This document shows positions 20,935-64,000 of a stretch of DNA of 64,000 bases, piece after piece. The position numbers and the translations under genes were made by a program. How positions within the stretch are numbered: position 1 is the stretch's first letter; each line of letters opens with the position of its first letter. The notes under the pieces were generated by a model that was not told where the DNA came from, did not search any database, and was given only the letters and a program-made list of their open reading frames with translations. Location of the stretch: IMG/VR virus record IMGVR_UViG_3300028630_000295; one strand, written 5' to 3'. The stretch is from an uncultured virus (IMG/VR IMGVR_UViG_3300028630_000295) (Duplodnaviria > Heunggongvirae > Uroviricota > Caudoviricetes).

Positions 20935-23900
20935 ATGTTAAAATTCCTTGATGTTGATAAGTTTTGTAAAAAATTGTCTCCCGTTTCTTCGTCTGATTAT
21001 TATACGAGAACGGGAGACTTTCATAGGGAAGGATTGTTTTCTGAACAGATTTTTGGACCTGTTGGTTCATTAGATAGAAGGAAAACATATTCATATATAA
21101 ACTTAAACTCTAAAGTTATTCACCCAACGGCTTTAAAACTATTAACACAACTAGATAGAAAAATTGAAAAATTTATATCTACAGAAGATACGTTTATTGT
21201 AACAAAGGACGGAAGGTTGGAACAATCTGATGAAGGTGTAACAGGAATTTTAAACTTTATTAAACTCTTTCCAAAAATTAAATTTAGGGGAGAAACAAAA
21301 GATAGGGAAAGATTTATAATTGTTTTAAATACTTCATTTAAAGCTGGAACTTTGTTTATAAATAAAATTCCTGTAATTCCTCCAGACCATAGACCAATTT
21401 TTAAAGATGAGCATGGAAACCCAGTAGTTGATAGTTTGAATGATTATTATCTTACTGTTCTTAGAAGATCTTTCTCAATGAGAAGCGCTGGGGCTGGTCC
21501 GCTGTATGATTTGTTAAACTATGGAATGCAAAAAGCTATTGTAGATTTGGATGAGTTTATTAAATCCAAAATTGGTAAAAAGGCTGGTCTTATTAGAAGC
21601 CAAATTCTTGGGAAGAGAACTGACTTTTCTGGAAGAGCTGTTATTACCCCAGGTCCACAACTTAAAGTAAATGAAATTGGTATTCCATTGAAACTAGCAG
21701 TTAGTTTATTTGAACCGTTTATAATACATACTCTTTTATATTCTGGAAGACCAAAAGATGAGTTAGAAAAAGAAATTAAAGGATATCTTAATACTGACTT
21801 ATCTGTTGACTCTGTAAAAAGGGTTATAAAAGCAATTAAATCTGGTGATGTAATTCCAAAGAGACTATACGAGTTATTTTGGGAAGCGACAGAAGCATGC
21901 ATTAAAGGAAGAATAGTTTTGGCAAAGAGAGATCCAGTATTGCATGCTGAATCAGTCAGAGCTTATATTCCAATATTAGTTGATGGAAACACTATTCAAC
22001 TTTGCACATTACAAGTTGGTGGTCATGGAGCAGACTTTGATGGTGATACAATGGCTGTATATCATCCAGTTACAGATGAGGCTCAAGAAGAAGCAAAAAG
22101 AAAGATGCTTAGATTAGTTTCGGGAAGTTCATCTAAAGCTCTTACATTTTCACTTGGAAAAGAGATGTATGTAGGTTTATATCTGATGACAAAAGATGTG
22201 ACGCCAAAAAACTCACCACTTTCTATAACAGAAGATGATATAATCAAAGCTACAAATCCATATGTTGCCGTCAAATTTAGAAATAAAAATACAACAATGG
22301 GAAAAGCAATATTCAATTATTGCTTACCAAAAGATTATCCATTTATTGATAAACAAGTGACATCTGGAGATGTTAACTCTATCATTTTAGATATTGTAGA
22401 ATCATATGGAGATGAAATAGCAATCGAATCATCATCCAGACTGGAAAAATTTGGATTTAAGTTTGCTACTCTTACGGCTCCTTCGTTTACATTCGACCAG
22501 ATTAAGATTCCACCTGAGATTTATAAACTCAAGCAAAAACTAGATAAAGCAACTACAGAGGAAGCTATTGAAATAGTTGCTGAAATGAGAAAAATAATGA
22601 TTAAGAGTATGAAAGATACTGGTGTATATGATCTAGTTGAATCTGGAGCAGGAAAAGGATGGGATCAACCAATGCAGATTTTAGCTGCAAAGGGTATTAT
22701 TGCAGATCCAAAAGGAAATATTCTTCCTCCTATTAAAGGTTCATTTATGGATGGACTAACTCCAAAAGAATATTTTGAAGCATCTTCTGGAGCTAGAAAA
22801 GGTATTATTGATAGAGTTTTGAATACTGCAGATACAGGATATATGTCCAGACAGTTTGTATTCTTACTAAACACTGTTGAAGCTAGCCCATCTTTAAATG
22901 ACTGTGGAACACAAAGAGTACTTCAACTAAAATTAGATAATGATATAGCATCTAGATTAACAGGAAGATTTATTGTTAAAGGTGCTGGTATACAAGAATT
23001 TAAGAAAGAGAAGTTTAGTACAGGAGATATTATTCATTTAAGAAGTCCAATTTACTGTAAAAGTAAAAAGATATGTCACACGTGTTATGGAAAATTGTTA
23101 GCTAGACATAGAACTCCATATGTTGGTGTTTTAGCAGCTCAAATAATTGGTGAACGTGGAACACAAATGATTATGAGAACTTTCCATACAGGTGGTGCAA
23201 TCAAAATTGCTGTAAGAGAGATTATTCAAGATATAGTAGAAAATGATCCTGTTGTAACTTCTGACAAGTTGAGAGGATATTTGAAACAAGAGAAGAATAC
23301 CCTATATTGTTTAAAGGATTGTAAAATTACAATAGATTTGTCAGACTATGTTATGGGAGATAATATTGAAATAGATGAAGATGAAAATAAAATTGATGTT
23401 CGTGGTTTGATGTGTCAGATTGAGTTTGAAGATTTAATATTCAATATAATTTTAGACTATGGACTTGAAATAAATTATAGAGATATTGAATATATCAAAA
23501 AAGAAAAAATAACGTTATTCTTTAAAGCAGATGATCCATTATTTGAAGTCTCTCTTGAAAGACAAGAATTAAAAGAGCAAGTATTATATGTTCAAAGGCT
23601 TCTAGCTGGAAGAGAAATTTTCAGAGATGTAGATCATCTTCTTATGAAACTTCTAAAAATATATGGACCACTTTCAAAAATGGATCTTGTTCATTTAGAG
23701 ATTTTATTGAGTCAATGTTTGAGAGATAGAGCAAATCCAGCAAATCCTGCTAGACTTGGTAAGACATGGGATCCAGTTATGGTTAACATCAAGAAGAATA
23801 TTTTTAATACTTCCTTTGTTCAGGGATTAGCATTTGAAAATGTTGGATTAGCAATCAAGACGGGATTAATATCAGAGGAAGTTCCTGACCAATCAATAAT

Positions 23901-23961
23901 TGAAAGAATTTTAACAGGTGAACTCGTTCCTAAGAAAGAAAGGGAGGATTATTATAGATAA
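20935..23961 (+). CDS. Multisubunit RNA polymerase beta'-like subunit, copy 1 (unsplit, no N-terminal Zn finger)
   Basis: GLFSEQIFG, IPVIPPDHRP, LGKRTDFSGRAVI, RDPVLH, GADFDGD, GARKGIIDRVLNTADTGY, AAQIIGERGTQMIMRTFHTGG. Confidence 0.95.
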   Translation: MLKFLDVDKFCKKLSPVSSSDYYTRTGDFHREGLFSEQIFGPVGSLDRRKTYSYINLNSKVIHPTALKLLTQLDRKIEKFISTEDTFIVTKDGRLEQSDEGVTGILNFIKLFPKIKFRGETKDRERFIIVLNTSFKAGTLFINKIPVIPPDHRPIFKDEHGNPVVDSLNDYYLTVLRRSFSMRSAGAGPLYDLLNYGMQKAIVDLDEFIKSKIGKKAGLIRSQILGKRTDFSGRAVITPGPQLKVNEIGIPLKLAVSLFEPFIIHTLLYSGRPKDELEKEIKGYLNTDLSVDSVKRVIKAIKSGDVIPKRLYELFWEATEACIKGRIVLAKRDPVLHAESVRAYIPILVDGNTIQLCTLQVGGHGADFDGDTMAVYHPVTDEAQEEAKRKMLRLVSGSSSKALTFSLGKEMYVGLYLMTKDVTPKNSPLSITEDDIIKATNPYVAVKFRNKNTTMGKAIFNYCLPKDYPFIDKQVTSGDVNSIILDIVESYGDEIAIESSSRLEKFGFKFATLTAPSFTFDQIKIPPEIYKLKQKLDKATTEEAIEIVAEMRKIMIKSMKDTGVYDLVESGAGKGWDQPMQILAAKGIIADPKGNILPPIKGSFMDGLTPKEYFEASSGARKGIIDRVLNTADTGYMSRQFVFLLNTVEASPSLNDCGTQRVLQLKLDNDIASRLTGRFIVKGAGIQEFKKEKFSTGDIIHLRSPIYCKSKKICHTCYGKLLARHRTPYVGVLAAQIIGERGTQMIMRTFHTGGAIKIAVREIIQDIVENDPVVTSDKLRGYLKQEKNTLYCLKDCKITIDLSDYVMGDNIEIDEDENKIDVRGLMCQIEFEDLIFNIILDYGLEINYRDIEYIKKEKITLFFKADDPLFEVSLERQELKEQVLYVQRLLAGREIFRDVDHLLMKLLKIYGPLSKMDLVHLEILLSQCLRDRANPANPARLGKTWDPVMVNIKKNIFNTSFVQGLAFENVGLAIKTGLISEEVPDQSIIERILTGELVPKKEREDYYR

Positions 23962-26900
23962 TGATAAGATACTCGTCTCTAAGATTATATAATCATGTTG
24001 TTGATGGATTGAGATTTCCTCCGACAAAAGATACTAAATATTTGATAACATACTTTTCTGAGAACTCTAGTTTTTTACAGGATTTTCATAGATTAAACAT
24101 ACGACTAGTTGATATTAGAATTGTTGTTATTCCTTATACGAAATATCCTCTAACTAAACTAACAACAGGTTTGAGGAAAGAATATAGAAAAATGGGAATG
24201 TTCTCATTCCAAAGTAATCAGCCTGTTCCATTTAGAAATGCTTATTATGATTTATCAAATTATTTTACTGCCGTAGATGACTTATGGAAGCCTGCAAACT
24301 ATAGAATGAGAGTTGGTCATATAGTTAAGAATGCTACAGAAGCATCTGTCGTTGGTTTTGAAGATTATCATAAGATTCTTTTTTATTCTGTAGATTTGAC
24401 TAAACCATTCGATAAAAACTATATAAATAGAAAGTTTTATCCAATTCTCTCAGCATTAAAAGATGGTGAGTTCCCATTTGATGATTTAGTTTTAGTAACA
24501 ATTGGTCCATCTGGAAGTAGATATAGACTATTAGTTAAAGATAGACAATATGTATTTGCAAGAGTTTGGAATTATGTTAAAGCAATTAAATTTCAACAGA
24601 TTGAAGATGGTGAAGTTTCTGATGAAGAAGTTGAAGATGCTTCTAACGATGTAGTTGATAAGGTTTCAACTATAGTTAATCCAGAGACCAAAGAGAAGGT
24701 TAGATCTGCTGTTTCCTCTTATTTAAAGAAGAGTCCAGAAGAAGCAGATAAAATAACGGATAAGAAGATTGATAATGATGATGCTGCAAAGATTGCTGCT
24801 AAAGCAATTTTATATAAAGCTACAGGAAGTTTTGTAAAATCTAAAGTTGCTGTTGATAAACTACCAAAAGATAAATCAACTAATGCATTGAAAGTTGTTG
24901 ATAAGAACTTTACAGATCAAATTTTAGATAAACAAAAAGCTGTTACAACATCAGCAAATAATATTACTAAATCATCAAATATTCCTACAGCAGTAGATCA
25001 AAAAAATCCGTCACATTTATTTCAGAAAAGACAAATAGACTTCCAAAAGAATTTGGAAAAGGATATAACAAACTCATTCTCTGTATTAGAGAGAAAAGAA
25101 GTTCCATTAAGAATAGAAAAAATTGAGATTGTTACTAAGGGACAAAGAAAGGGTGAAATTGATAAATCTGATATAAGTACTGTTAACGTAGTTCTCCGGG
25201 ACCAATGGAAAAAATCCCACAGAATCCATATTGATCTTCCAAAAATTGATCCAAGTTCTGGAACGTTCAGAGTTAATGGAAGAACTAAATGTCTTATTAA
25301 TCAGATAGTTCTCTGTCCAATTACATTTCCTAAAAAATATGAGTCAAAGTTTGAGAGCTCATATGCAATCTTTAGAATCTATAGTAAAAGGACCGCCAGA
25401 CACAATTATTTAGAAGCATACATAGCTTCTCACAGGCTCCCTCTCCTTATCCTAATGGCATATAGTTTTGGGTTTGAGGACACCCTAAAACGGTTTGGGA
25501 TAGGATATCAATTGACAACAGCTCGTCCATCTAAAGATGACTTTTATTATAAGTTCTTATCTGGAAACTACATTGTCTTTGAAAATGTAAATACTGAACT
25601 TAAGTTAGAACTAGTAAAGTCATTTTTGTTAGCTAATGTGTCAAAGTATAATGTTCAAAAAGAGTTTGGGAGTAAGGAATATTTTAATGATCTAATTATT
25701 GAAATGACAGGGAAGAGAAATTCCACATATTTGATTAATCAGAACCTTGAGAATATAGTTGATCCTGTTGCCAGGCAAGTTCTATTAAATCAGCATTTAC
25801 CAACTGAACTAGAAACTATTATGTTCTATATGGCAAGTAAGGTAGTTACTGGATTTGTACAGGATAGAAATGATATAGCAAACCAGAGAATCAGGGGTTC
25901 AGAAGTTTTAGTTCATTTAATGCAAAAACAAATTCTTGCAGCTTATACTGTATATAAAGAGCAAGTTCTTGCTGGAAACAAAGATGCTAAATTTGAGATT
26001 CCTCAACATAAACTTATAAGTGATTTTGTCAGATCAGAAATTGTAACAGATATGGAATATGCTAATCCAATTGAAGAAATGGCAGTTATGACAAGAATTT
26101 CTCCTGTTGGAAAAGCTATTGGTGGAATTCCAGATAAGCAAGCAATTCAAACTGTTGCAAGAAATGTACACCCATCTTATTTTGGAAATATAGATCCATT
26201 AGATACACCAGAAGGTGGAAATATTGGTGTTGTTCAACAACTAGCAATAGATGCAATGATAACTTCTGCTAGGGGATTATTTCAAACAAAACCAATAACT
26301 AATAAAGAAGGTGGGGGAATGTTATCAACGTCTGCTTCTATGATTCCCTTTGTTGAAAATAATGAAGGTGCAAGAATCATGATGGCAGCAAACCAATCAA
26401 GGCAGATGTTACCACTTAAGAATCCAGAAGCCCCTGTAATTCAGTCTGGATATGAATCAATACTAACTGGAGTTCTTTCAGATAATTTTATAAAAAGATC
26501 TCCATGTGACGGGAGAGTTTTAAATATAACTCAAGATTCAATTTCTATTGTGTGTAATAATAAAAGAAAGATTGATATTGATTTAACACCTGTTCACTTG
26601 AGGTCTGGTATTGGTAAAGATACTTTAAGTATTTTTAAACCAAAAGTGGTCAAAGGGCAAGCAGTAAAAACAGGGCAAATAATTGCTGAAGGGAGTTGTA
26701 TTTCTGAAGGAGCAATTTCTCTTGGAAGAACACTATGTACAGCATATATGCCATACAAAGGATATAACTTTGAAGATGGTATAATAATAAGTGATAGTAT
26801 AGTCAAGGAAGAAAAACTAACTTCTCTACATGGAATTGAAGAAGAGATTTTAATATCTGAAGATGATAGAGTTTTATATGTAGTTCCAATGGGATCCAGA

Positions 26901-28055
26901 ACTAACAAAGGTGAACCTTTACTTAGAAAGACTATTGGTGAGTTAGAGCAACTAATTGGATATGATGAAGAAGAAGGTGAAGAAGTAACAGCTGGTCAAT
27001 ATATAAAAAAGAGTCCTGGCGGAGCAGTAGTTGATATTGAAGTATATTCTAATGTTAACATAGATAAATTTCCAACATTAAAAGATTTAGCTATCAGAAC
27101 ACAGAAAAGATATAAAATGCTTCCAGATGAAAAGTTTACTGTCCGAGGAAATATAATTAAGGGAATTCTTATAAAATTTAAAATTGAACAAGAACTTTCT
27201 GTTAGTGTTAGCGATAAATTATGTAATAGATATGGAAATAAAGGTATTGTTTCACTAATTGAAAAAGAAGAAAATATGCCAAGAACTCCGTGGGGAGAAA
27301 GAGTTGAGGTTATTCTTAATCCTCTTGGAATCATTAATAGAATGAATGTTGGTCAACTTTATGAGTTATATTGTGGTTTGATTTCTAGAACACTAGCTGT
27401 AAGAATAGTTGAATATAATAGTCAACCAAAGACAGTACAATTATTGAGGCTTATTCTTCCAAAGTTGGATAACACAGATGGAAAGAAAATAAGCACCGGA
27501 GTAATTTCATATGTGAGTTCTTTATCTCCAGCAGGGTTCAAGAATCTAATTAATCAGATAAAAACATTTAAATTTGTTCCAATTATTATTCCACCATTTA
27601 AATCTCCAAAGTTGGATCAAGTTATGGAATGTTTGAAGATTCTTGGTTTGAAAGCTGGATATAATTTGTATCTGCCAGAATATAATACAAAGACTGACCA
27701 CATAGTTCCTGTTGGTTATACATACCAATCAAAACTTGAACATATAGGTGAGATGAAAATTTATGGACGTTCTACGGGTCCTGTTACAGGTAAAACAGGT
27801 CAGCCCACTGCAGGAAAAAGAAGAGAGGGTGGGCAAAGAATGGGAGAGCAAGATACCTATTCTCTTATTTCGTATAACTGCCCTGCTCTCATTGCTGAAT
27901 TTTTTGGTCCATTGAGTGATGATGCTGTTAGTAAAAATGAGATTATTTCAGATATTATTCAAAGAGGTCATGCTGAGTTTAGAACAGCAAAGGTTTCTCC
28001 TGTAAAAGATTTGCTAACATCTTATTTTATTTCGTTGATGCTTGAAAGGTACTAA
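23961..28055 (+). CDS. Multisubunit RNA polymerase beta-like subunit (unsplit, long N-terminal extension)
   Basis: HPSYFGNIDPLDTPEGGNIG, RIMMAANQSRQ, GYNFEDG, DKLCNRYGNKG, NPLGIINRMNVGQ, KLEH, GGQRMGEQD. Confidence 0.95.
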   Translation: MIRYSSLRLYNHVVDGLRFPPTKDTKYLITYFSENSSFLQDFHRLNIRLVDIRIVVIPYTKYPLTKLTTGLRKEYRKMGMFSFQSNQPVPFRNAYYDLSNYFTAVDDLWKPANYRMRVGHIVKNATEASVVGFEDYHKILFYSVDLTKPFDKNYINRKFYPILSALKDGEFPFDDLVLVTIGPSGSRYRLLVKDRQYVFARVWNYVKAIKFQQIEDGEVSDEEVEDASNDVVDKVSTIVNPETKEKVRSAVSSYLKKSPEEADKITDKKIDNDDAAKIAAKAILYKATGSFVKSKVAVDKLPKDKSTNALKVVDKNFTDQILDKQKAVTTSANNITKSSNIPTAVDQKNPSHLFQKRQIDFQKNLEKDITNSFSVLERKEVPLRIEKIEIVTKGQRKGEIDKSDISTVNVVLRDQWKKSHRIHIDLPKIDPSSGTFRVNGRTKCLINQIVLCPITFPKKYESKFESSYAIFRIYSKRTARHNYLEAYIASHRLPLLILMAYSFGFEDTLKRFGIGYQLTTARPSKDDFYYKFLSGNYIVFENVNTELKLELVKSFLLANVSKYNVQKEFGSKEYFNDLIIEMTGKRNSTYLINQNLENIVDPVARQVLLNQHLPTELETIMFYMASKVVTGFVQDRNDIANQRIRGSEVLVHLMQKQILAAYTVYKEQVLAGNKDAKFEIPQHKLISDFVRSEIVTDMEYANPIEEMAVMTRISPVGKAIGGIPDKQAIQTVARNVHPSYFGNIDPLDTPEGGNIGVVQQLAIDAMITSARGLFQTKPITNKEGGGMLSTSASMIPFVENNEGARIMMAANQSRQMLPLKNPEAPVIQSGYESILTGVLSDNFIKRSPCDGRVLNITQDSISIVCNNKRKIDIDLTPVHLRSGIGKDTLSIFKPKVVKGQAVKTGQIIAEGSCISEGAISLGRTLCTAYMPYKGYNFEDGIIISDSIVKEEKLTSLHGIEEEILISEDDRVLYVVPMGSRTNKGEPLLRKTIGELEQLIGYDEEEGEEVTAGQYIKKSPGGAVVDIEVYSNVNIDKFPTLKDLAIRTQKRYKMLPDEKFTVRGNIIKGILIKFKIEQELSVSVSDKLCNRYGNKGIVSLIEKEENMPRTPWGERVEVILNPLGIINRMNVGQLYELYCGLISRTLAVRIVEYNSQPKTVQLLRLILPKLDNTDGKKISTGVISYVSSLSPAGFKNLINQIKTFKFVPIIIPPFKSPKLDQVMECLKILGLKAGYNLYLPEYNTKTDHIVPVGYTYQSKLEHIGEMKIYGRSTGPVTGKTGQPTAGKRREGGQRMGEQDTYSLISYNCPALIAEFFGPLSDDAVSKNEIISDIIQRGHAEFRTAKVSPVKDLLTSYFISLMLERY

Positions 28056-28650
28056 TATGGAAGAACAAGACAATTTAAAAATACTTCTTGGTTCAGTAGA
28101 TCCATTACCAGAAGTAGATGATGAAGAGAATGATGAAATGGCGGAACAAGCGTTTAAACAGTATGTTATGTTGGAAGTTTTAACAGCTATCGGAGAAGAG
28201 AACTTTAAAGAAATATACTATAATATGATAAATGAGATTAAGCAATATCCAATAGAAGAACAATTTACTTTTTGTAGGGCTATTTTAGCAAGAATAATGC
28301 AAGTCTATAATTTTGAGTTTCCAAGAGAAATAGATCTCTTAACAGCTGGAGCAGTACAACAAATATATATACTTATTGAATTTATAGAATTTAACCATAT
28401 TAATTTTATTTCAGAACTTATGAAACCATATAATTTCGACTTCAGAAAAGGAAATGCTAAAGATTTTATAGAACTAAACTATACAAAAATTGAAGGAGAC
28501 ATTGAAGTAATTTCTAGAAATGTTCCCGAGATAATTTCTGAATTTCTTAGAACATATAATAAAGAAGATTTAATAAATTGGTTAGTGAATAGAATAGAAA
28601 AGTCAAGAATGATAATCCTACTAAAAATGAAAGAAGGAGAATTTGTATGA
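28042..28650 (+). CDS. Hypothetical acidic protein
   Basis: Follows beta; likely start at ATG 28057. Confidence 0.6.
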   Translation: MKGTNMEEQDNLKILLGSVDPLPEVDDEENDEMAEQAFKQYVMLEVLTAIGEENFKEIYYNMINEIKQYPIEEQFTFCRAILARIMQVYNFEFPREIDLLTAGAVQQIYILIEFIEFNHINFISELMKPYNFDFRKGNAKDFIELNYTKIEGDIEVISRNVPEIISEFLRTYNKEDLINWLVNRIEKSRMIILLKMKEGEFV

Positions 28651-28898
28651 GTAAAGTGGTAATTAAGAAAAAGGGAATTACTATTGAAATGGAAAGGTCA
28701 GATTTGGTTATGGTTGACCAGACTGCTGATGGTGTGGTATTTAACTTCAAGTATGGTTTATTCCTGCACTATACTGATAACTTTATGCCAAATGGTGCAA
28801 AGGAACTTATGAAGAATACATCAAATTCATTTCCAAATGCAAAGAAACTAACATTTAACCTAGATAATTACAATAAACCAGTATCTGCTGAGATGTAA
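28647..28898 (+). CDS. Hypothetical small protein
   Basis: AAGGAG RBS; GAACATATAATAAAG motif about 100 nt upstream. Confidence 0.65.
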   Translation: MSKVVIKKKGITIEMERSDLVMVDQTADGVVFNFKYGLFLHYTDNFMPNGAKELMKNTSNSFPNAKKLTFNLDNYNKPVSAEM

Positions 28899-28923
28899 AA
28901 TTTTTATTAGAATTTAAAAGTAT

Positions 28924-28935
28924 CTATATATATAA
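28924..28935 (+). promoter_or_regulatory. CTATATATATAA motif (candidate early phage promoter)
   Basis: Second exact copy, at the start of a long intergenic region. Confidence 0.5.
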
Positions 28936-29138
28936 ATTTATAGAAAGAAGGAAATTATCAACTAAATTTTCAAATATTTCAATTATAAAACAAGTGTAAA
29001 TCAAATGGCCAAGGATAAGTATCTGTTTTCTAAAAAAGACGGATATCTTTATCCTACGTCGTTATATAATAATAATAATAGAAAGGAGGTTATAATTTTT
29101 TGGGGTTTTTCTTCTAATACTGTGTTTGGAAGGGGAAT

Positions 29139-29372
29139 ATGAGAACAGAGAGAGATACCAAATTGAGAAGGAGAACAGAAGAGTTCTTACGAAGTAGTAA
29201 GAGAGATATCATTATTGCATTTGGAATTGTTTGTGGATTTGTTGAATCTTTCACCGAAGAAGTGGATGAAAGAAAAGTCAGAAGAAAGATTGAAGATGCT
29301 ATCCGGAAGGATGACGAGTTACTAAAGGCACTGGCACGGGCTATCAAAAGACTTGAAGCCGACGCAGATTGA
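29139..29372 (+). CDS. Hypothetical small charged protein
   Basis: GGAAGGGG RBS-like sequence; 77 aa. Confidence 0.5.
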   Translation: MRTERDTKLRRRTEEFLRSSKRDIIIAFGIVCGFVESFTEEVDERKVRRKIEDAIRKDDELLKALARAIKRLEADAD

Positions 29373-29429
29373 ATAGAAATATTCATGAAAACAATTGCCT
29401 TCAAAACTAATAAGACTACAGGCATTTAT

Positions 29430-29498
29430 GCTACTAGTATGGTTAGTTTTACTTATTTAGTTACGAAACTAATTAGTAAAGCTAACCATACTAGTAGC
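29430..29498. repeat. Long inverted repeat / hairpin (~30 bp stem)
   Basis: GCTACTAGTATGGTTAG / CTAACCATACTAGTAGC is a perfect 17-bp pair, continued by TTTTACT/AGTAAAG and TTAGTT/AACTAA. Confidence 0.85.
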
Positions 29499-29505
29499 TG
29501 AATCC

Positions 29506-29538
29506 TGTTTTTATAAACTCTTTTTGTTTTTATAAACT
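29506..29538. repeat. Direct repeat TGTTTTTATAAACT x2
   Basis: Copies at 29506 and 29525 in a T-rich tract. Confidence 0.7.
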
Positions 29539-29570
29539 ATTTTTGTTTAGAAATTAAAAAATCCGAATCC

Positions 29571-30158: not shown

Positions 30159-30190
30159 AAAACAAATTTAAAACTAAGGAGACAACAAGT

Positions 30191-44484: not shown

Positions 44485-44749
44485 AATTATTAAACAATGG
44501 GTATGTGTAGAATGTCATGGAGATGGGACAGAATATAGAATTATAGATTCAGTTTGTTTTTTCTGCCGTGGTACAGGATTTGTAACAATGTCTACTACAT
44601 CAGTTTGTGATGTATGTAAAGGAAAGGGTATAGTCCCACTACATACATTTGGACCATGTAGTTATTGTAGTGGGAAAGGATATAGAGATTGGGTAGATTA
44701 TATTAAAAGACCAAGTAAAAAAGAAAAGGAGCTGCCATGTTTCGTATAA
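44477..44749 (+). CDS. Zinc-finger family member
   Basis: Four CxxCxGxG; ends CSYCSGKGYRDWVDYIKRP. Confidence 0.8.
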   Translation: MNKIIKQWVCVECHGDGTEYRIIDSVCFFCRGTGFVTMSTTSVCDVCKGKGIVPLHTFGPCSYCSGKGYRDWVDYIKRPSKKEKELPCFV

Positions 44750-54940: not shown

Positions 54941-54945
54941 CTCAA

Positions 54946-57534
54946 ATGAGTGAAAAGAAAGAAAAAGAAATAGAGTTTACTGATAGTTTTCGTGAATTAA
55001 TTATTTCTAAACGATTTGTATCATCAAATCAAACAGCCTGTGATGAAAAAGAAAAGATTTTTCTTCCCTATAAAAGAAAGAATCTTTTGAATCTAAATGA
55101 TTTCTTTGAAAGATTAATGAAAATGGTATCTATTAAGGGTACTATTCTTCCAAGAAATTGTAGATACGTAGATTCAAGAGATAATGGTTATAAAATTTTA
55201 GTAATTGAGGATCCTCCTGCTGTTAGAAATATTTTAGTTGACATGGATTTTGAAAATACAAAGGAGAGATTTAAAATTACAGGAAAAGATCAGATTGTTG
55301 AAGTTAAAGATTTAATTGGTGAGAAGAGACCATATAGAATGAATCTTTCTTTCCCGTATGTAGTATATATACTTATGTTTAATCATGAGAATAGATTTAG
55401 TAGAATGAAAGTTTTTTATAGATTATCTCCAATGAGTTCTGCTCATGATTATCTTCTTCTAGCAAACTTGCCAAATATTGGTGGTAGTCAAACGGTTTGC
55501 TTAGGGGATTTGCATCAGCAGTATAGTAACTTATCTGATGGAGCAAATCTAGTTATAGATTCATTTTGGTTTAACTCATTTAATACTGATTATATTACTA
55601 ACTATCAATCATACGCTAAAGAAGTTCCCGAGTTTAAAGATTTTGTTTCTTGGGCATACAACACAGTTGTTGATCCAATGTTTATCTTTAGTGTAAAGTA
55701 TTTTAAAAATGATAGAACTGTTGAACAAGAATGCAACCAATTTTTTAAGGAGCACTCACCACAAGCAGAAACAAATAATAACACAATTCACGATTTTTTA
55801 AACAGATTGCTTTCCCCATCCAAAGTTGTAGTAGATGGGAAATTATTAACTTCGAGAGCTGGAACTACTGAGTCATATTATTTTAAAGAGAAACCAGTAT
55901 CAATTGGAGATATCATTAATTATGATAAAAGTGATTATTATATCAATGATATTATTATAGATTCAAATACAGGTTTTCCAGCTTATTTTAGTCTTGAAGA
56001 TAAAGAAGGAAAATTAAAAACAATAGAAATTTCAAAAGTTAACCAATCTCAATTTGAGATTAAGTATCCTGTTATTGAATGTCTCCAGTTGGCTGATGGA
56101 AATGAAGTTAAAATTGGAGATGCTGTTGTATTGCAATATCCATTCAAAAAAGTAAGAACCATTGAAAAGATAAGAATGGGAAGAGATGGTAATCCAGAAG
56201 TATTGTTAAAAGGTGATACTGATTATTACCTTTTAGATAAAATTGGTGCCACAAAACTAGGGGATATTATTCCTCAGTTAAGTGGAATTAAACTTAACAA
56301 AGATGATGCATATATTCTGTATAGAAAGACAGACGATGTATTCAAATACTTTGCTAATGTAAAATATGATTCATATGAAATTTCTACCGAAGGTTATATT
56401 ATTTTAAAGTTTAATGAAACTAATATGCAAGCAGGTCAAAGTGCTAGAAAATGGAGAATCTATGATTCGTCTGTGGAGCATCATCAAGATGAATGGCAGT
56501 TGCATTTGAAGTCAGATGTTAAACTACTTGAAAACAGAACATTTAGGATTTTAAATAAGTTATATCAGAATAAGAATAAAGATATTTATTTAGTTAAAGA
56601 TGCTGTCATATTTGATGAAAGAAAATATGCAGGAGTAGTTCCAAGCTACAATCATGAAGAAGCAATTAATGACATTCTTACGGAAAAGGGAACCAGATTA
56701 TTTATTCCATCTTATGATGTAGATATTGATTTTTCTGTTGGAGATACAGTTATTGTAGCGGATTGGGATAATTTATATTGTATGGTAACCCCAAGAGTAA
56801 TTCATGCATTTATTTATGAAAATCAGTGCTTATTTGTTCTTACCATTGATCCCGATACAGGAGCAATGAGAAAAGATAAATATATTGATTTCAAAAATAA
56901 TATTGTCTATGTTGGTTCCATTAGAAAAATTGATTTGAATGTTAAAAATCTCGAAAATGGAACTCTAATTGTAGCGCAAGAAGCATGGATTCAGAACTTC
57001 CCTAAGAAAGATGTAAATAAAATTGTAGGTGTAATTACTGATACTATTACTCATCCACCTCTTGTTCTTTGCTCAAATGGGTTAACTATTTGGGCAGATG
57101 AATTAAATCAATTTAAATTGATTAAGAAAGGTGCAAGAGGATACAAGAGTCTGTTTGAAAAGATAGTTCCTGTTGTAAATCCAAAAGATTTGAAAGATCA
57201 ACTTGGGGATCTTTATATTCACACTGATTCTGGTAGTAAAGTTGATACTATTCTCTTCTCAAAAACAACACCTCAAGATTATGGTCACAAAGCATATACA
57301 TATCTGATAAGTACATCTTATATTCTTACCAGAAATGATTATAATGCTAGAAATTCTTTGAATCTTAATGCTACACCAGAAGCGTTTGAAAAATTTAAAG
57401 TTAAGAGATATGGAATTATAAGACCAAGATATTCTGAAAGAAGAAAAGCTGCAGAATCAATGATTAATGCTTATCCAAATCTTCTTGGTGGTCATATCAG
57501 TAGCATTAGACAATTTAGATTATACCAAAAGTGA
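54946..57534 (+). CDS. Prokaryotic E2 family D (PRTRC protein B-like) domain with long C-terminal extension
   Basis: LSFPYVVY...KVFYR...LLLANLPNIGGSQTVCLG...DSFWFNSFN; directly upstream of JAB, ThiF and Ubl genes. Confidence 0.65.
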   Translation: MSEKKEKEIEFTDSFRELIISKRFVSSNQTACDEKEKIFLPYKRKNLLNLNDFFERLMKMVSIKGTILPRNCRYVDSRDNGYKILVIEDPPAVRNILVDMDFENTKERFKITGKDQIVEVKDLIGEKRPYRMNLSFPYVVYILMFNHENRFSRMKVFYRLSPMSSAHDYLLLANLPNIGGSQTVCLGDLHQQYSNLSDGANLVIDSFWFNSFNTDYITNYQSYAKEVPEFKDFVSWAYNTVVDPMFIFSVKYFKNDRTVEQECNQFFKEHSPQAETNNNTIHDFLNRLLSPSKVVVDGKLLTSRAGTTESYYFKEKPVSIGDIINYDKSDYYINDIIIDSNTGFPAYFSLEDKEGKLKTIEISKVNQSQFEIKYPVIECLQLADGNEVKIGDAVVLQYPFKKVRTIEKIRMGRDGNPEVLLKGDTDYYLLDKIGATKLGDIIPQLSGIKLNKDDAYILYRKTDDVFKYFANVKYDSYEISTEGYIILKFNETNMQAGQSARKWRIYDSSVEHHQDEWQLHLKSDVKLLENRTFRILNKLYQNKNKDIYLVKDAVIFDERKYAGVVPSYNHEEAINDILTEKGTRLFIPSYDVDIDFSVGDTVIVADWDNLYCMVTPRVIHAFIYENQCLFVLTIDPDTGAMRKDKYIDFKNNIVYVGSIRKIDLNVKNLENGTLIVAQEAWIQNFPKKDVNKIVGVITDTITHPPLVLCSNGLTIWADELNQFKLIKKGARGYKSLFEKIVPVVNPKDLKDQLGDLYIHTDSGSKVDTILFSKTTPQDYGHKAYTYLISTSYILTRNDYNARNSLNLNATPEAFEKFKVKRYGIIRPRYSERRKAAESMINAYPNLLGGHISSIRQFRLYQK

Positions 57535-58712
57535 GGAAAATAATGTTTAATGTATATATCTATAATGAAGGAGATGAACTTCCGAAAGATGATGTTTGTT
57601 ATATTCTCACAAAAGACGGCATTCTTCTAAAAAAGAAGGTCGGATTGATGGAGAGTATTTCTAAGGTTGATAAAATTTCGATTCTTGGAGATTTAAAACC
57701 ACATGCAAAACTCCACATTGAAAAGATACCTGGTCCTGTGTTTGCTAAGATTTATAGTTTCTTTAAGGAAGTATATAAAGAGTTTTATTCGGAGTGTGTA
57801 GCTCTTTTATACTATAATCCAAAAACGAAGAAATATAAAACTTTCATTCCGAACCAGGAGGTTTCTGGAGCTAGTCTTGATTATGTTAAAGATAGAACAT
57901 TCAAAGATCATGTGTTGATGTGTTCTATTCATAGTCATGCTAGCATGAGTGCTTTCCATTCAGGAACGGATAGTGATGATGAAAAGAGCTTTGATGGTCT
58001 TCATATAACTCTTGGGAAGATGAATCAAGATGTTATTGATATCTCAGCTTCTATTGTTGCAAATGGAACCAGATTTATGGTTGATCCTCTTGACTATGTT
58101 CATAATCTGGATCTTGTTGAATTCTCATATTATAATCCAAATCAGTTTAAACCAGCATTTGTGGTTGTTGATGGTGAAAAACAATACACTAAAGATGTAA
58201 AAACACATCTTGGTTATGTAATTAATGGTGTATCTGATAAGGATAAGGAATTTGATAAGAATTGGATGAGATTTGTCAAGAAGAAAACATACTCATATAC
58301 ATATTCAAGATGGGTATGGGATAATGAGCAGAAAAAACTAATTGAAGTCAAAGAGGAGAGATCTGGTGGTGAAACAGTTGGATCTGTTCTGGAAGCTCAA
58401 AATCGTGCCCGTGGTGGTTATCCATATTATGGTGGTCATAGGGGACGAGAGGATTGGTGGACTGGTATAAACGAAAGACAAAGGTATAGAAATGATGAAC
58501 ATACATCTCCAAGATATGAAAAATATAATCCATGTAAGGATTGTATTTTTAGAGATCATAAACTGAGACAAGATGAAGTTAGCAAAGCACTAGAACCAGT
58601 TGCTGATAACTATAAGAGTAAAACTCCTGATCCTACTTTTAAAGAAATGGTAAATACAGATCAAGAACTCATGGAACTTTATGATGAATTTGGTCTGTAT
58701 AGATACTGGTAA
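57531..58712 (+). CDS. JAB/JAMM metalloprotease (Ubl deconjugase)
   Basis: Upstream Glu (YSECVALLYY) and canonical H-x-H-x7-S-x2-D (IHSHASMSAFHSGTD). Confidence 0.88.
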   Translation: MRKIMFNVYIYNEGDELPKDDVCYILTKDGILLKKKVGLMESISKVDKISILGDLKPHAKLHIEKIPGPVFAKIYSFFKEVYKEFYSECVALLYYNPKTKKYKTFIPNQEVSGASLDYVKDRTFKDHVLMCSIHSHASMSAFHSGTDSDDEKSFDGLHITLGKMNQDVIDISASIVANGTRFMVDPLDYVHNLDLVEFSYYNPNQFKPAFVVVDGEKQYTKDVKTHLGYVINGVSDKDKEFDKNWMRFVKKKTYSYTYSRWVWDNEQKKLIEVKEERSGGETVGSVLEAQNRARGGYPYYGGHRGREDWWTGINERQRYRNDEHTSPRYEKYNPCKDCIFRDHKLRQDEVSKALEPVADNYKSKTPDPTFKEMVNTDQELMELYDEFGLYRYW

Positions 58713-58725
58713 AATGGAGGAATTA

Positions 58726-59409
58726 ATGGAAAGACTTGTAATTATTGGTCTTGGAGGTATTGGTTCAATTTTAAGTGATAAATTATCTAGATTTGTAAAT
58801 TTCAAAAAAGATCAAGAAACTTGGATTACATTGATTGATGGTGATTATTTTGAGGAGAAGAATTTTGAAAGACAAGAATTCTTCAACCTTGGAAATAAAG
58901 CATCAGTCAAGGCAGCGGAATTGAGTTCAAGGTATGAGAAGATTAAGTATGATAATGTTCCATACTTTGTTGATGAAAATCTTTTACCAAGAGTGATGGG
59001 TGAGGGAGACACTGTTTTTCTCGCAGTTGATAATCATAAAACGAGAAAATTAGTCTCTGATTATGCTAAAAATTTAAAAGATATTACTATTATCTCTGGT
59101 GGTAACGATCTTATTGATGGGAACGTGCAAATCTATGTACGAAAAGGAGGTGAAGATTTAACTCCCAGTCTTACTGATTACCACCCAGAAATTGAAAACC
59201 CAGCAGACAAATTACCAAATGAAATGAGTTGTGAAGAGTTACAAAACTCTGAACCCCAACTATTCTTTACAAATTTAGGGGTTGCTACAATCATGTGTTG
59301 GTCCTATTACAATATTAAAAATAAAGACCTCACAAGTTCCGAAATTTATTTTGATATTAACAAAATGAGAGCACATTCTACTGCTAGAGAACCAAAAACT
59401 AAAAAGTAA
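58726..59409 (+). CDS. ThiF/E1-like Ubl-activating enzyme
   Basis: IIGLGGIGS, IDGD.FEEKNFERQ, NKA, AVDNHKTR, SGGN, candidate catalytic Cys in EMSCEE; start after GGAGG. Confidence 0.9.
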   Translation: MERLVIIGLGGIGSILSDKLSRFVNFKKDQETWITLIDGDYFEEKNFERQEFFNLGNKASVKAAELSSRYEKIKYDNVPYFVDENLLPRVMGEGDTVFLAVDNHKTRKLVSDYAKNLKDITIISGGNDLIDGNVQIYVRKGGEDLTPSLTDYHPEIENPADKLPNEMSCEELQNSEPQLFFTNLGVATIMCWSYYNIKNKDLTSSEIYFDINKMRAHSTAREPKTKK

Positions 59410-59419
59410 GGAGTTTGAA

Positions 59420-59869
59420 ATGAATAGAGCAGAACTAGAAGCAAAAACCGTAGATGAACTTCGTAGTATTTGTGTACGTTATGGTATCGTTGGAATGAGC
59501 AAGAAGAGGAAGGACATCATTGTTGATGCTCTTCTAGCATATTATAAAAGTAGTGCAGGACCAGTTTCAAAGTCCGGTTCCCAGAACCTCGATGAAATGA
59601 GGTCCGTTTTTCACAGTAAAGTTACGAATCCTGGTGCAGCAGCAGGAAACAAAACTTCTACCACAATCCTCGTATCCTGTGGTGCGGCGTATGGAAACTT
59701 TCCTGTGGTCGGGAAAACTGTGGGGTCCGTTGCCGAGTTTCTTCGGGAAGTCCTCAATGTTGACCGTATGTCACAAGGTGTCGTAAACGGTAAGCAGGTT
59801 GAAGATTCTTACCGTCTGAAAGAAGGGGACAATCTTGAGTTCCTGAAACCTGCTGGCCGCAAAGGTTAA
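59420..59869 (+). CDS. Ubiquitin-like protein with N-terminal Rho-N/HeH-like domain
   Basis: ELEAKTVDELRSIC...GMSKKRKDIIVDAL; C-terminal beta-grasp signature VNGKQVEDSYRLKEGDNLEFLKPAGRKG ending in Gly. Confidence 0.8.
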   Translation: MNRAELEAKTVDELRSICVRYGIVGMSKKRKDIIVDALLAYYKSSAGPVSKSGSQNLDEMRSVFHSKVTNPGAAAGNKTSTTILVSCGAAYGNFPVVGKTVGSVAEFLREVLNVDRMSQGVVNGKQVEDSYRLKEGDNLEFLKPAGRKG

Positions 59870-59877
59870 AAAATGAA

Positions 59878-59910
59878 GCTCCCAGTCTTCATGGAAAGAG
59901 GACTGGGAGC
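59878..59910 (+). terminator. GC-rich hairpin after the Ubl gene (terminator or 3' stabiliser)
   Basis: GCTCCCAGTCTTC-ATGGAAA-GAGGACTGGGAGC, 13 bp; U-tract weak. Confidence 0.65.
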
Positions 59911-59933
59911 CCATTTAATAAACTTATGGAGAA

Positions 59934-60425
59934 ATGATTATGGAAGATGGCAAGCAGATCAATCCTGAAAATCTATATCCCAAGTATTATTATCAATCGG
60001 ATGAAATCATTGGAAACGTGTATACAGCATGTATTCTAGTTGATAGATCTAACGGTGTAATTGTGTCAAGAGGTATAGCTGTAAGATCTCTTCTTGACAT
60101 GCATAAAAAAGCAACTGCCAGAAATATTGCTCATGGTAGAGCTATTAAAGCTATTGCCAATGTGAGTAGTTCTGATGAAATCAATGTTGATAGGCAGAGA
60201 GTTCCATCGTTTATTCTATTTAAGAAGAAAGATGGATTAACAGAAGAAGAAGCTCAGAAAATCAATGAGAGTTTCTTTATTCCAGAAGGATCCTCAAACA
60301 TTTATGTTCCAAGGTTCTATCCACTTGAGGTAACTGCAAAAGAGTTTAAATTCAAATCAGAATTTATGCCTCAACCTACTGAGAAGGAAAAGATGATTGC
60401 TACAAAGTTACCTAAAGTAAAATAG
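59934..60425 (+). CDS. Hypothetical phage protein
   Basis: GGAG RBS; RGIAVRS..D..KKATARNIAHGRA. Confidence 0.6.
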   Translation: MIMEDGKQINPENLYPKYYYQSDEIIGNVYTACILVDRSNGVIVSRGIAVRSLLDMHKKATARNIAHGRAIKAIANVSSSDEINVDRQRVPSFILFKKKDGLTEEEAQKINESFFIPEGSSNIYVPRFYPLEVTAKEFKFKSEFMPQPTEKEKMIATKLPKVK

Positions 60426-60430
60426 TATGA

Positions 60431-60544
60431 TTGGTGGGTGGGTGACCTGGGGAGGAACTTGATGCTAGATCCAAAAAAGGGTACAATTTTGATCCTTTAA
60501 ACCGACTAGTGTTCAAGGAGTAACCCACAGTAGCCCACCCCCAA
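60431..60544 (+). ncRNA. Unidentified ~115-nt rod-shaped structured RNA
   Basis: Nested stems TTGG/CCAA, GGGTGGGT/GCCCACCC, TGGG/CCCA, CTTGA/TCAAG, TGCTAG/CTAGTG, AAAGGGT/ATCCTTT; GC-rich island in AT-rich DNA. Confidence 0.65.
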
Positions 60545-60561
60545 ACTTTTAAGGAGTTTGT

Positions 60562-60816
60562 ATGGCATATAACCAAGAAAAGGATAAACTTTTAAAACTT
60601 TTTGAAATGGAATCCAATATTCCAGGAAACAGTCTTTTGGTTTCGATATTTTCATATGATAATGCAAAACCAAAGCTTCAAATTACAAGATCATATAAGA
60701 AAAAAGATGAAACATTAGGATATGCAGCTGCTGGAAGATTAACAATAGAAGAAGTAGAATTTCTGAAAAATAATATGGATGAAATTATTTCAACAATGAA
60801 AGGTATAGGTAAGTGA
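60562..60816 (+). CDS. PC4/YdbC-like nucleic-acid-binding protein
   Basis: LLVSIFSYDNAKPKLQITR...GRLTIEEVEFL; AAGGAG RBS. Confidence 0.55.
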   Translation: MAYNQEKDKLLKLFEMESNIPGNSLLVSIFSYDNAKPKLQITRSYKKKDETLGYAAAGRLTIEEVEFLKNNMDEIISTMKGIGK

Positions 60817-60853
60817 GATGCTTTCTCAACATTAGGGAACAAATAAATGTGGA

Positions 60854-61753
60854 TTGGAGGGATGTGATTTGTACGGTAGTATTTCCCTTATTGGTTTAGG
60901 ATCACTTGGTAGTTTTTTAGCTAGAACCCTCGTAGATGCAAGTCGTCATTTGAGAGAACTTATCTTGATAGATTATGATATAGTATCAGAAGATAATTTA
61001 GAGAGAAGTTTATACGATATAAATGATATAGGAAAATTGAAAATAGATGCCCTATTTGATAAAATAAGAAATTATAAACCAAGTTTATCAGTTCAAAAAC
61101 TTGCGACTAGATTAATTTCTGGATCACCACTTCCAATATGCGACTTACATATTGACTGTAGAGATTTTCATTATAATTCAATTGAAAATGTACCAATGAT
61201 AAGAACTTATATTTCTTCTGGAAAACTAGTTGTAGATTGTAGGGATAATATTAAACACCAACGAAATATAGAAGGTTCTTACTCAACGGTAGTTTTGAAA
61301 CACCATCTTTTATATGCTTCAACAATTATAGCAAATTTGATTGACACAGGAAATATTAAAAAATTAATTGACAAAAAATTAGTTCAAATTTTTGAACTAG
61401 ATTACCTCGAAAAGAAAATAGAAGATAAACTCAATAGAGTAGAAAATATGCCAGATGTGATTTATGACTCAGAATTTGATAGTCAGAAATTATTGAACTT
61501 ATTAGAATATTCTCAACCAATTATCTCTTCAAATAAAAACTCTCCTATTACAGTATATGTTGGTGGTCGAAATAGACCAACAGTTAAAGAAACAATTCCC
61601 CCAAATAGATTGTGTGATTTTAGTGACTTAATATCCTGTTTGTCACCATTAACACAATTGAGATTTTCTAGTAATTACTATATTGTGATATTTAGTCCAA
61701 TTACACCACATGGTCCTATCATTGAGTTAATTCCAGACGATGGTTCAGCGTAG
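60854..61753 (+). CDS. Second, divergent ThiF/E1-like protein
   Basis: LIGLGSLGS, IDYDIVSEDNLERS, GKLKIDAL, IDCRD; start codon uncertain. Confidence 0.8.
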   Translation: MEGCDLYGSISLIGLGSLGSFLARTLVDASRHLRELILIDYDIVSEDNLERSLYDINDIGKLKIDALFDKIRNYKPSLSVQKLATRLISGSPLPICDLHIDCRDFHYNSIENVPMIRTYISSGKLVVDCRDNIKHQRNIEGSYSTVVLKHHLLYASTIIANLIDTGNIKKLIDKKLVQIFELDYLEKKIEDKLNRVENMPDVIYDSEFDSQKLLNLLEYSQPIISSNKNSPITVYVGGRNRPTVKETIPPNRLCDFSDLISCLSPLTQLRFSSNYYIVIFSPITPHGPIIELIPDDGSA

Positions 61754-61761
61754 GATTAATC

Positions 61762-62109: not shown

Positions 62110-62117
62110 GAGGAAAT

Positions 62118-62548: not shown

Positions 62549-62552
62549 AAAC

Positions 62553-64000
62553 ATGCCTTCATTGTTGGATCAAAACAAATTCGTTGAGGATTTGCCGGAA
62601 GTTTCTTCTGTATCAATTATGAGCAAAAGAAAGTTCCATCCAGAAGGACTTTTCTCTGAGCAGATTTTTGGACCTCTCAAAAATTATACATGCCAATGTG
62701 GAGTATATTATGGTTCTTCTAAATCAGGTGGGAAGTGCAAAACTTGCCAGGTTGATATAGTGAATAACAATGAGAGGAGAAAAAGGTTTGCTAAGATTAG
62801 ACTTCCTATTCCTGTAGTTAATCCAATCTTTTATGATCTCATTGTTAGTATTGGTGGGAATAACTTAAAGGCTACGATTGACACATTGATGAAAAAAGAC
62901 GATGTTAGTCTTTATAAGGATGGAAATGATTATGTATGCGTAGACGATAAATTAGTTCCTCCAAAAGTTAAAAAATGGGAAACATTAGAAGCAATCAATG
63001 AACTTATTACTGGAATTACAAAAGAAAATGTTAAAGGTGGGAATAAAAATTGGAAAATTATTCAAGATAATTTAGATAAACTATTTCTAAATTATGTTAT
63101 TGTTCTCCCACCTGATTTGAGACCAGCAGCAAAAGGGATTGAAAAGAACAGTCAGGTAGTAGATAAAATTAATAGATATTATATGCAAATACTAACTAAA
63201 AAAGAAATAATGAAAGAAACTATTATTAATGTAACCAATAATAAACAATTATTTTATACTTATTTTAAGCAGTTACAAAAAGATGTAAACGAATTATATG
63301 AGCATATTATTGAAAAGCTATCTAAAAAAGAAGGCTTAATCAGGGGAAATATTCTTGGAAAGAGAATTGACTTTTCTGGTCGAGCAGTTATCATTCCAGA
63401 TCCAACCCTATCTTTAGATGAATGTTGTTTACCATATATTATGGTTCTGGAATTGTTCAAGTTAAAAATCTCCAAAATTTTGATTGAGCTTGGAAAATTT
63501 AAACTTCTTAATGATGCTGTTGATTATATTGACAAGTGTATTGAATATAAAATTCCGGCTCTATACAAAATTGCAGAAGAAGCAATTTATGACGAAGTTT
63601 GTTTATTGAATAGACAACCATCTCTGCATAGATTGAGCATGGTTGGTTTCAAAATTAAGATGTCAGTGGATAATGTTATTAAAATTCACCCATTGGTTTG
63701 CTCTGGATTTAACGCAGACTTCGATGGAGATCAGATGGCTGTTTATATTCCAGTATCTGAAGAAGCTAAAGAAGAACTCAGACAAAAATTTCTATCAACA
63801 AAAAATCTTACAAATCCAGCAAACGAGAGTTTAACTACAACTCCAAGTCAGGATATTGTTCTTGGGATATATACATTGACATCTCATAGATTTAAAGAAT
63901 TAGAAGGTAAAGTAGAATATAAAGGAAAAGAAATTACAGAAGCACAAAAAATATTTAATGAAGCACTACCAGAATCTTATCCAATTATTGATTATGTTGT
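62553..64000 (+). CDS. RNA polymerase beta'-like subunit, copy 2 (3' truncated by window; missing from ORF track)
   Basis: Manual translation: MPSLLD...GLFSEQIFGPLKNYTCQC...CKTC...VLPPDLRP...LGKRIDFSGRAVI...NRQPSLH...GFNADFDGDQM (63711-63731); GAGGAG RBS. Confidence 0.95.
   Translation, partial: MPSLLDQNKFVEDLPEVSSVSIMSKRKFHPEGLFSEQIFGPLKNYTCQCGVYYGSSKSGGKCKTCQVDIVNNNERRKRFAKIRLPIPVVNPIFYDLIVSIGGNNLKATIDTLMKKDDVSLYKDGNDYVCVDDKLVPPKVKKWETLEAINELITGITKENVKGGNKNWKIIQDNLDKLFLNYVIVLPPDLRPAAKGIEKNSQVVDKINRYYMQILTKKEIMKETIINVTNNKQLFYTYFKQLQKDVNELYEHIIEKLSKKEGLIRGNILGKRIDFSGRAVIIPDPTLSLDECCLPYIMVLELFKLKISKILIELGKFKLLNDAVDYIDKCIEYKIPALYKIAEEAIYDEVCLLNRQPSLHRLSMVGFKIKMSVDNVIKIHPLVCSGFNADFDGDQMAVYIPVSEEAKEELRQKFLSTKNLTNPANESLTTTPSQDIVLGIYTLTSHRFKELEGKVEYKGKEITEAQKIFNEALPESYPIIDYV

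Follow-up and report, generated by a model that had tools for sequence, protein, structure and literature searches.

Two paralogous RNA polymerases with whole beta and beta' subunits in an uncultured jumbo virus lineage

The DNA analysed here (the window) comprises the first 64 kb of a 72,687-base record of an uncultured tailed virus, IMG/VR IMGVR_UViG_3300028630_000295, and it carries genes for two paralogous multisubunit RNA polymerases (RNAPs), in each of which the beta and the beta' subunit are encoded by one unsplit gene. As the two-RNAP design known from phages phiKZ and AR9 (a virion and a non-virion enzyme) is present while their split-gene feature is absent, this virus would work like phiKZ and AR9 and differ from them in its whole subunits. 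We consider it quite probable that the contig belongs to a jumbo myovirus lineage which encodes two separate two-subunit (beta plus beta') RNAP cores and one protein resembling AR9 gp226 and phiKZ gp68, and which runs a transcription programme of the phiKZ/AR9 type.

In the proposed programme, copy 1 would be packaged, injected and used to transcribe early genes, reading an AT-rich TATATATATT motif found before the sigma-like (gp226/gp68-like) gene and before small unknown genes. Middle and late genes would be the task of copy 2, made in the cell together with the sigma-like protein. The copy-2 holoenzyme would recognise an AACA motif that is followed 11 nt further on by a purine, as in AR9, and that lies before tail genes and also before the copy-1 operon, thereby closing the cycle.

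The two gene pairs and their distribution

The four core subunit genes are:
20935..23961, + strand: intact beta' of copy 1, predicted virion RNAP; a single frame of 1008 amino acids without N-terminal zinc finger, assigned by Pfam and profile scores
23961..28055, + strand: intact beta of copy 1, predicted virion RNAP; a single frame of 1364 amino acids with an N-terminal extension of about 350-460 amino acids
62553..64000 in the window, continuing to contig position 65252, + strand: intact beta' of copy 2, predicted non-virion RNAP; 899 amino acids, zinc finger kept
contig 65504-68524, outside the window, after beta' of copy 2: intact beta of copy 2; 1006 amino acids

A preliminary description of the window had placed a full beta' and a full beta side by side and a second beta' from position 62553. 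The former two are indeed single open frames with Pfam matches (Rpb1_2/Rpb1_5 for beta' and Rpb2_6/Rpb2_3 for beta), and the latter is a real gene, complete in the contig; the adjacent DNA, which it had proposed to inspect, was found to hold both the rest of copy 2 and a second beta. Both paralogous sets possess the catalytic DxDGD and beta lysine motifs, and they are 32% identical in beta' and 27% identical in beta (main alignments). The N-terminal zinc finger, NRQP and NADFDGD are all present in one open reading frame (ORF) in beta' of copy 2, as described, while beta' of copy 1 has KRDP and GADFDGD and no zinc finger, an absence already noted for this gene and now seen in 37 of 37 copy-1 rows. 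The copy-1 family consensus is NADFDGD (33 of 37 rows), with G replacing N in three; the three catalytic aspartates are invariant across relatives, and the DK..GNKG motif is retained by both betas. In a PDB sequence search, the best 60 of 127 matches were all bacterial beta'.

The window has about 31% G+C and nearly all of its genes on the + strand. Phage replication, repair and baseplate genes neighbour the polymerase genes, and a search of the window for tRNA genes found none. For each beta', the relatives with 53% identity or more number at least 120, almost all of them equal in length. Relatives were surveyed in 40 searchable records from 50 loci, chosen for carrying at least one beta' copy. 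The copy-1 type of beta' occurs in 20 of these records, 19 of which (two being near-copies) also carry the copy-2 type; in all 19, the two are on the same strand, with copy 1 lying 29-50 kb upstream of copy 2. Among the 15 records of at least 100 kb, 11 have both copies and one, G038, has two diverged sets; in the remaining three, the absent copy would fall near or beyond the contig end.

One relative, G005, is a complete 277-kb genome with terminal repeats that is syntenic with the window. It encodes a major head protein, portal, protease, terminase, sheath, baseplate and an intact family B DNA polymerase (1087 amino acids). The family scan took in 150 of its 376 ORFs, and the part syntenic with the window was not rescanned. 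Twenty-seven of its proteins match our reference set, and AR9 gives the best match for 26, the set consisting of all of AR9 and only parts of phiKZ and Madawaska. The RNAP alpha domain PF01000 was absent from five of five long relatives (two of them complete), with the control positive in 14 of 14.

It is hardly credible that either copy is a duplicate in decay, a gene captured from a host or a product of misassembly. The G for N in the catalytic motif of copy 1 would fit decay; against this stand the invariant aspartates, the conserved gene order and the fact that both pairs are full length and 51-67% identical across many relatives. Both copies fall outside bacterial rpoB/rpoC in all trees, and near-identical DNA is present in wastewater and activated-sludge runs of three studies, with positions 12000-31000 covered by independent runs without a supported break. 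The preliminary description had feared that copy 2 might be a fragment or pseudogene, or might branch within host rpoC as a capture or misassembly. Copy 2 proved to be whole, has its own beta and is paired in 19 of 40 related contigs; the complete genes, the conserved pair order and the tree position outside bacteria rule out host capture, fragment and misassembly alike.

The view of the subunits as intact and bacteria-like stands for all four genes here, and falls as a fixed trait of the lineage, some relatives being split. In five of about 20 copy-1 relatives, beta' ends near residue 775-783 and resumes as a gene of 227-239 amino acids, with a restart gap of 8 nt in one case. A 249-codon frame of AR9 matches this end part of beta', and the split-off part recalls the fifth virion subunit described for phage SPN3US in the available part of PMC7598289. 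In G038 (357 kb, completeness 100%), beta is in two genes in both RNAP sets (184000-221000). Conversely, the cultured Fusobacterium phage JD-Fnp4 (ON464764.1, 83950-86742) has the N and middle parts of a virion-type beta' joined in a frame of 935 amino acids; this frame carries the annotation 'subunit alpha'. Other arrangements were also seen: the IMG/VR loci L022-L053 have beta fused to beta' in a frame of 2000-2500 amino acids, or beta fused to the N-terminal half of beta'. Some copy-2 beta' relatives (P0166, P0236; L163-L168) carry an extra PF14890, which we take to be an intein domain, or an insert of about 170 amino acids near residue 765.

Assignment of the copies and their phylogeny

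From its sequence, copy 1 looks like the virion enzyme, as the preliminary description had supposed: profile scores, loss of the zinc finger, the fold of the beta N-extension and the promoter context all point that way, and its packaging would follow from this assignment. Virion and non-virion labels were taken from the annotation of AR9 and phiKZ and carried to ten more phages by BLAST. Over the matched stretch, the profile of the copy-1 beta' N part scored higher with the virion subunit in all 12 reference phages, mostly by large margins (phiKZ, 96 versus 15 bits; phiR1-37, 129 versus 54). The zinc finger, present in 36 of 37 copy-2 rows, is missing from every one of the 12 virion rows (of which two are mis-started), and copy-1 and virion rows have a similar short replacement in its place; by pattern it is present in 6 of 12 non-virion rows and nearly so in two more. 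The profile of the copy-1 beta scored 72-79 bits with the virion beta N-lobes of AR9 and Madawaska and 25-32 bits with the non-virion ones. With that of the copy-2 beta, the AR9 non-virion N-subunit scored 82 bits and the virion first exon gave no match. When the first 460 residues of the copy-1 beta were modelled alone, the best BFVD matches (E 7.5e-10 and 3e-9; 500-590 columns, TM about 0.3) were a 1393-amino-acid protein and a 921-amino-acid PBS1 protein, which, judging from their lengths, are probably the virion betas of phiR1-37 and PBS1.

Trees were built with split subunits joined; the beta' rows were cut from 64 to 48, the beta tree had 41 rows, and the concatenated trees 35 and 24. 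The beta' sequences of AR9 and Madawaska were omitted because of introns. In the beta' tree (477 columns, LG+G4), the two-RNAP viruses all fall into a single group apart from bacteria, single-RNAP phages and nucleocytoplasmic large DNA viruses (support 99/99), within which copy 1 joins the virion enzymes (80/94) and copy 2 the non-virion enzymes (75/65). The latter pairing recurs in the beta tree (492 columns; 86/89). The concatenated tree recovers the two-RNAP group (94/99), copy 2 with non-virion (88/86) and copy 1 with virion (70/95), and so does the concatenated tree under C20 PMSF (92/98, 90/98 and 82/89, respectively). In approximately unbiased (AU) tests, a clade of copy 1 plus copy 2 was narrowly rejected (p-AU 0.042 and 0.036). 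These results suggest, with moderate support, that the split virion enzymes have their orthologue in copy 1 and the split non-virion enzymes in copy 2; with that orthology, the duplication would predate the splits. The two-RNAP strategy with intact subunits, as it had been proposed for this virus, is thus supported by the phylogeny, the conserved pair and the gp226/gp68-like subunit; packaging, timing and early expression of copy 2 we infer.

Several results weigh against this reading. In the beta tree, the virion enzymes join those of phages Carin-5 and GN1 (84/93) with copy 1 apart from them; a clade of virion plus non-virion enzymes was not rejected (p-AU 0.31, 0.12 and 0.155), and the AU tests ran under the simpler LG+G4 model. 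The branches on which orthology depends have moderate support and none is starred, so that, with this alternative unrejected, orthology is the best tree rather than a proven one. Over the matched stretch, the copy-2 profile scored higher with the non-virion subunit in only 6 of the 12 phages, namely JD-Fnp4 and the AR9-like phages. The beta N-extension gave a weak HHalign result (E 0.003, probability 9.9), and virion and non-virion enzymes are not told apart by the beta' middle part or the beta C-terminal part. The whole programme, packaging and timing included, is read from sequence and predicted structure. To these points belong the motif counts around copy 2 and before the DNA polymerase gene, given below.

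The same two-RNAP strategy might have been reached separately, by a duplication or acquisition independent of that in phiKZ and AR9, the likeness of copy 1 to virion enzymes then being due to convergence or slow evolution. The unrejected clade and the beta tree just mentioned would fit such an origin, as would the fact that four AR9-like non-virion enzymes and the fused-type phage enzymes have lost the zinc finger too. The beta' split site common to the split enzymes (PMC7598289, in the part available) is most simply explained if the split predates their duplication. This last argument is weakened by the intermediates JD-Fnp4 and G038, which show that, within each class, these sites may be either joined or split. 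The consistent preference of copy 1 for virion subunits, the common beta N-extension and gp226 fold, and the grouping of copy 2 with non-virion enzymes in four trees also speak against a separate origin, which we regard as unlikely.

If copy 1 and copy 2 are the orthologues proposed, the unsplit pair may show the form that the phiKZ and AR9 polymerases had before gene splitting. We lean, without strong conviction, towards the following view: a large, widespread and undescribed jumbo clade keeps the ancestral unsplit virion/non-virion pair with a gp226-type factor; all splits came after a single duplication, which took place in a viral ancestor; the 'shared' beta' split originated, or was reversed, on more than one occasion; and the enzymes, with two chains and no alpha, are the simplest multisubunit RNAPs known. 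The origin of virion and non-virion RNAPs (duplication in a phage or two acquisitions) is called unknown in the available parts of PMC7598289 (2020) and PMC13282480 (2026), and it becomes testable with these genes. Unsplit, slowly evolving orthologue candidates with the same promoter factor and geometry bear both on this question and on that of primitive RNAP pieces. They would also make it possible to study a virion-type RNAP, and assembly without alpha, with a construct of two genes.

The sigma-like protein, promoter-like motifs and further genes

The sigma-like gene and the motifs lie at:
18981..20423, + strand: sigma-like promoter-specificity subunit with AR9 gp226/phiKZ gp68 fold, predicted partner of copy 2 (AlphaFold, Foldseek)
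18942..18953, + strand: AT-rich motif of the CTATATATAT type, 38 nt upstream of the sigma-like gene; predicted early promoter
20446..20454, + strand: RGAACAAA motif, predicted late/middle promoter of the copy-1 operon
28924..28938, + strand: second early-type motif, at the head of a replication gene block
60836..60844, + strand: RGAACAAA motif before a ThiF gene, 1.7 kb upstream of beta' of copy 2

The sigma-like gene, overlooked in the preliminary description, encodes 480 amino acids. Pfam, PHROG and reference-set sequence searches assigned the protein to no family, and only its fold was informative. Its AlphaFold model (pLDDT 81.8, pTM 0.53) gave only three Foldseek matches at E <= 0.001 (7s01_A, 7um0_A and 8que_B), all of them chains of AR9 or phiKZ non-virion RNAP, which from their lengths and entries are taken to be gp226 and gp68. 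Against AR9 7s01_A, 404 residues aligned with a VIA Z of 20.0 and a root-mean-square deviation of 16.8, and the later VIA rows were 8.8 (phiKZ 7ogp_B) and then 7.2. The fold predicts a non-virion promoter subunit of the gp226/gp68 type. The gene is conserved upstream of the copy-1 operon and single copy in 4 of 5 long relatives; no homologue was detectable in G038. A 464-residue AR9 frame in which V206 was located aligns weakly to the family (E 0.02). V206 renders gp226 uracil-specific, according to the available part of PMC9209446; the column aligned to it holds Tyr in 13 and Phe in 7 of 20 rows, so that, as far as this weak alignment goes, uracil reading is not indicated. UGI gave no phmmer match in G005.

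Upstream regions of G005 contain two prominent motifs besides the ribosome site, GAACAAA and CTATATATATTAA. Of 72 RGAACAAA sites, 31 lie within 150 nt before a same-strand start (10.8% at random; 6 on the opposite strand), and in all 31 a purine stands 11 nt past the first A of AACA (background not computed). The AR9 late consensus is AACA-N6-TA/G in the available text of PMC7598289; the AACA-to-purine spacing is the same, and the T of AR9 is mostly A here. In G005 this motif precedes long genes of the tail block and the gene before sheath, and also the DNA polymerase gene. The AT-rich motif is found before small unknown genes; eight early promoters annotated in AR9 are similar to it (ATATATTAT core). 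Within 700 bp upstream, matrix matches to the late type were found for 16 of 20 copy-1 beta' genes and 0 of 17 sigma-like genes, and to the early type for 0 of 20 and 11 of 17. This is the pattern expected if copy 1 is late and packaged and the factor is early. The preliminary description had put copy 1 behind the GAACAAAT motif; by count in the window this motif is not enriched (10 versus 7.2 expected, with 22 of 100 shuffles as high), and the claim survives only by position across relatives.

Neither enzyme might be packaged: host RNAP would start infection and the phage enzymes would act sequentially (for example, middle and late), or the roles of the two might be swapped. A search for an early promoter before copy 2 found none. 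An early-type motif occurs within 700 bp upstream of the copy-2 beta' in 2 of 50 loci and within 2.5 kb in 7 of 50, the nearest strong one in the window being 33.6 kb upstream; late-type motifs occur within 2.5 kb in 18 of 50 loci (1.2-1.8 kb upstream in many), coding controls giving 1 of 49 each. Some split-RNAP phages, moreover, still require host RNAP (PMC7598289, in part). Against this alternative, copy 1 lies behind the same motif as the tail genes, as expected of a virion protein, and its closest characterised phage relatives are annotated virion subunits. We consider it improbable that neither enzyme is packaged and retain copy 1 as the predicted virion enzyme; copy 2 may be reached by long read-through or by an unmodelled promoter.

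Two further conserved elements flank the copy-1 genes:
20465..20932, + strand: conserved 155-amino-acid gene directly before beta' (20 homologue rows in fetched loci)
28042..28898, + strand: conserved genes of 202 and 83 amino acids after beta (20 and 19 homologue rows in fetched loci)

The first has no Pfam or PHROG match and the other two match no Pfam or PHROG family; the latter are candidates for accessory or virion proteins.

Just upstream of copy 2, a block of the window (54946-61753) that is kept in G005 constitutes a ubiquitin-like conjugation set, with a JAB-domain gene (57531-58712), ThiF/E1-like genes (58681-59409 and 60854-61753) and an unassigned 862-amino-acid gene. Downstream, contig positions 68314-68560 (the last 250 bp or so of the copy-2 beta and a terminator-like hairpin) are repeated at 71053-71304 with 72% identity, as a 69-amino-acid ORF. 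An 816-amino-acid gene without Pfam match lies between the repeats and a DNA methylase gene follows the second; the arrangement looks like a recombination scar or an insertion. QueD-like and radical SAM genes (window, 44737-45180 and 52158-53195), together with QueC and partial thymidylate-synthase-family genes (G005, 186671-187270 and 201192-202055), suggest modified DNA bases. A short direct repeat and an inverted repeat were seen by eye in the intergenic region 29372-29571.

Three of five long relatives carry a Volactin-like (PF25216) actin-family gene with 231-254 bits (G005, 168800-169762; G011, 224751-225710; G021, 112073-113029), and only 1 of 14 control genomes passed the cut-off. This gene is possibly a substitute for the spindle, or a hint at archaeal hosts. 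Copy-2 beta' relatives P0165, P0233 and P0234 are catalogued under metagenome-assembled genomes labelled Thorarchaeota or Heimdallarchaeaceae, one on a 255-kb contig; mis-binning may account for this placement. From the Volactin genes and Asgard-labelled assemblies, infection of archaea by some members with a bacterial-type polymerase seems a doubtful prospect. A GTDB scan covered 1 of 64 parts and returned bacterial rpoC only, and thus says nothing on the host.

Comparison with known systems

In the literature covered (subscription journals and bioRxiv supplements lay outside the search), no description was found of an unsplit two-enzyme system with a gp226-type factor. In their available parts, PMC7598289 and PMC13282480 treat split systems only and PMC5759034 a split system, and PMC7824862 argues for primitive RNAP pieces that had never formed whole subunits. 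PMC10159854 mentions one virus with a second beta fragment without a two-RNAP reading, and the Asgard-virus papers (10.1101/2021.07.29.454249 and PMC13700489) describe no such virus there.

The mReC phages (Weinheimer and Aylward 2020, PMC7481178, available in part) are likewise uncultured tailed phages with full-length beta and beta'. Copy 2 has the features by which they were defined (tailed phage, beta and beta' of at least 800 amino acids, NADxDGD). That this filter generally missed copy 1 is ruled out by the NADFDGD consensus given above. In the portion of the supplement seen (20 of 116 rows), at least three contigs have two COG0086 genes, uncommented, and one of these shares a sample number with the public name of G005. 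The available main text says nothing of copies, virion, phiKZ or AR9; the enzyme serves there as a single deep-branching marker, and neither roles nor a promoter factor nor promoters are assigned to it. The mReC trees likely mix two paralogues.

Cultured single-RNAP phages (Rhizobium RHph_Y65, Cobetia Carin-5, Yersinia GN1/YerA41 and Ralstonia RP13) also have whole or nearly whole beta and beta'. Unlike the present virus, they have one beta' set per genome; the beta' tree and the concatenated trees place them away from the two-RNAP group. In Carin-5, an annotated sigma gene adjoins the RNAP genes. JD-Fnp4 is similar in its joined virion-type beta' but differs in having its non-virion-type beta' in two genes and in branching inside the split-enzyme clades.

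AR9/PBS1 and their kin (phiR1-37 and Staphylococcus jumbo phages; AR9 non-virion holoenzyme, PDB 7S01) share with this lineage two paralogous beta/beta' sets, a gp226-fold subunit, the lack of a detected alpha, the AT-rich early-type motif, the AACA late-type motif with a purine at the same distance, and related capsid, protease and terminase. However, the AR9 non-virion core has four polypeptides and the virion core at least five (PMC7598289, in part), whereas here one gene encodes each of the four large subunits. Copy 2 retains the zinc finger lost in AR9, V206 of gp226 is replaced by Tyr/Phe in the weak alignment, and the family B DNA polymerase of G005 is intact.

The phiKZ-like phages (Chimalliviridae) have virion subunits gp178/149/180/80 and non-virion subunits gp55/74/71-73/123/68. 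They resemble this lineage in the two-set design, in the best matches of copy 1 (gp180 and gp178), in a gp68 fold like that of the 480-amino-acid protein and in a non-virion zinc finger that is kept. In contrast to them, the subunits here are unsplit, no tubulin was found in 5 of 5 long relatives and chimallin gave no phmmer match in G005 (a single-sequence query of low sensitivity), and an actin-family gene is present in 3 of the 5.

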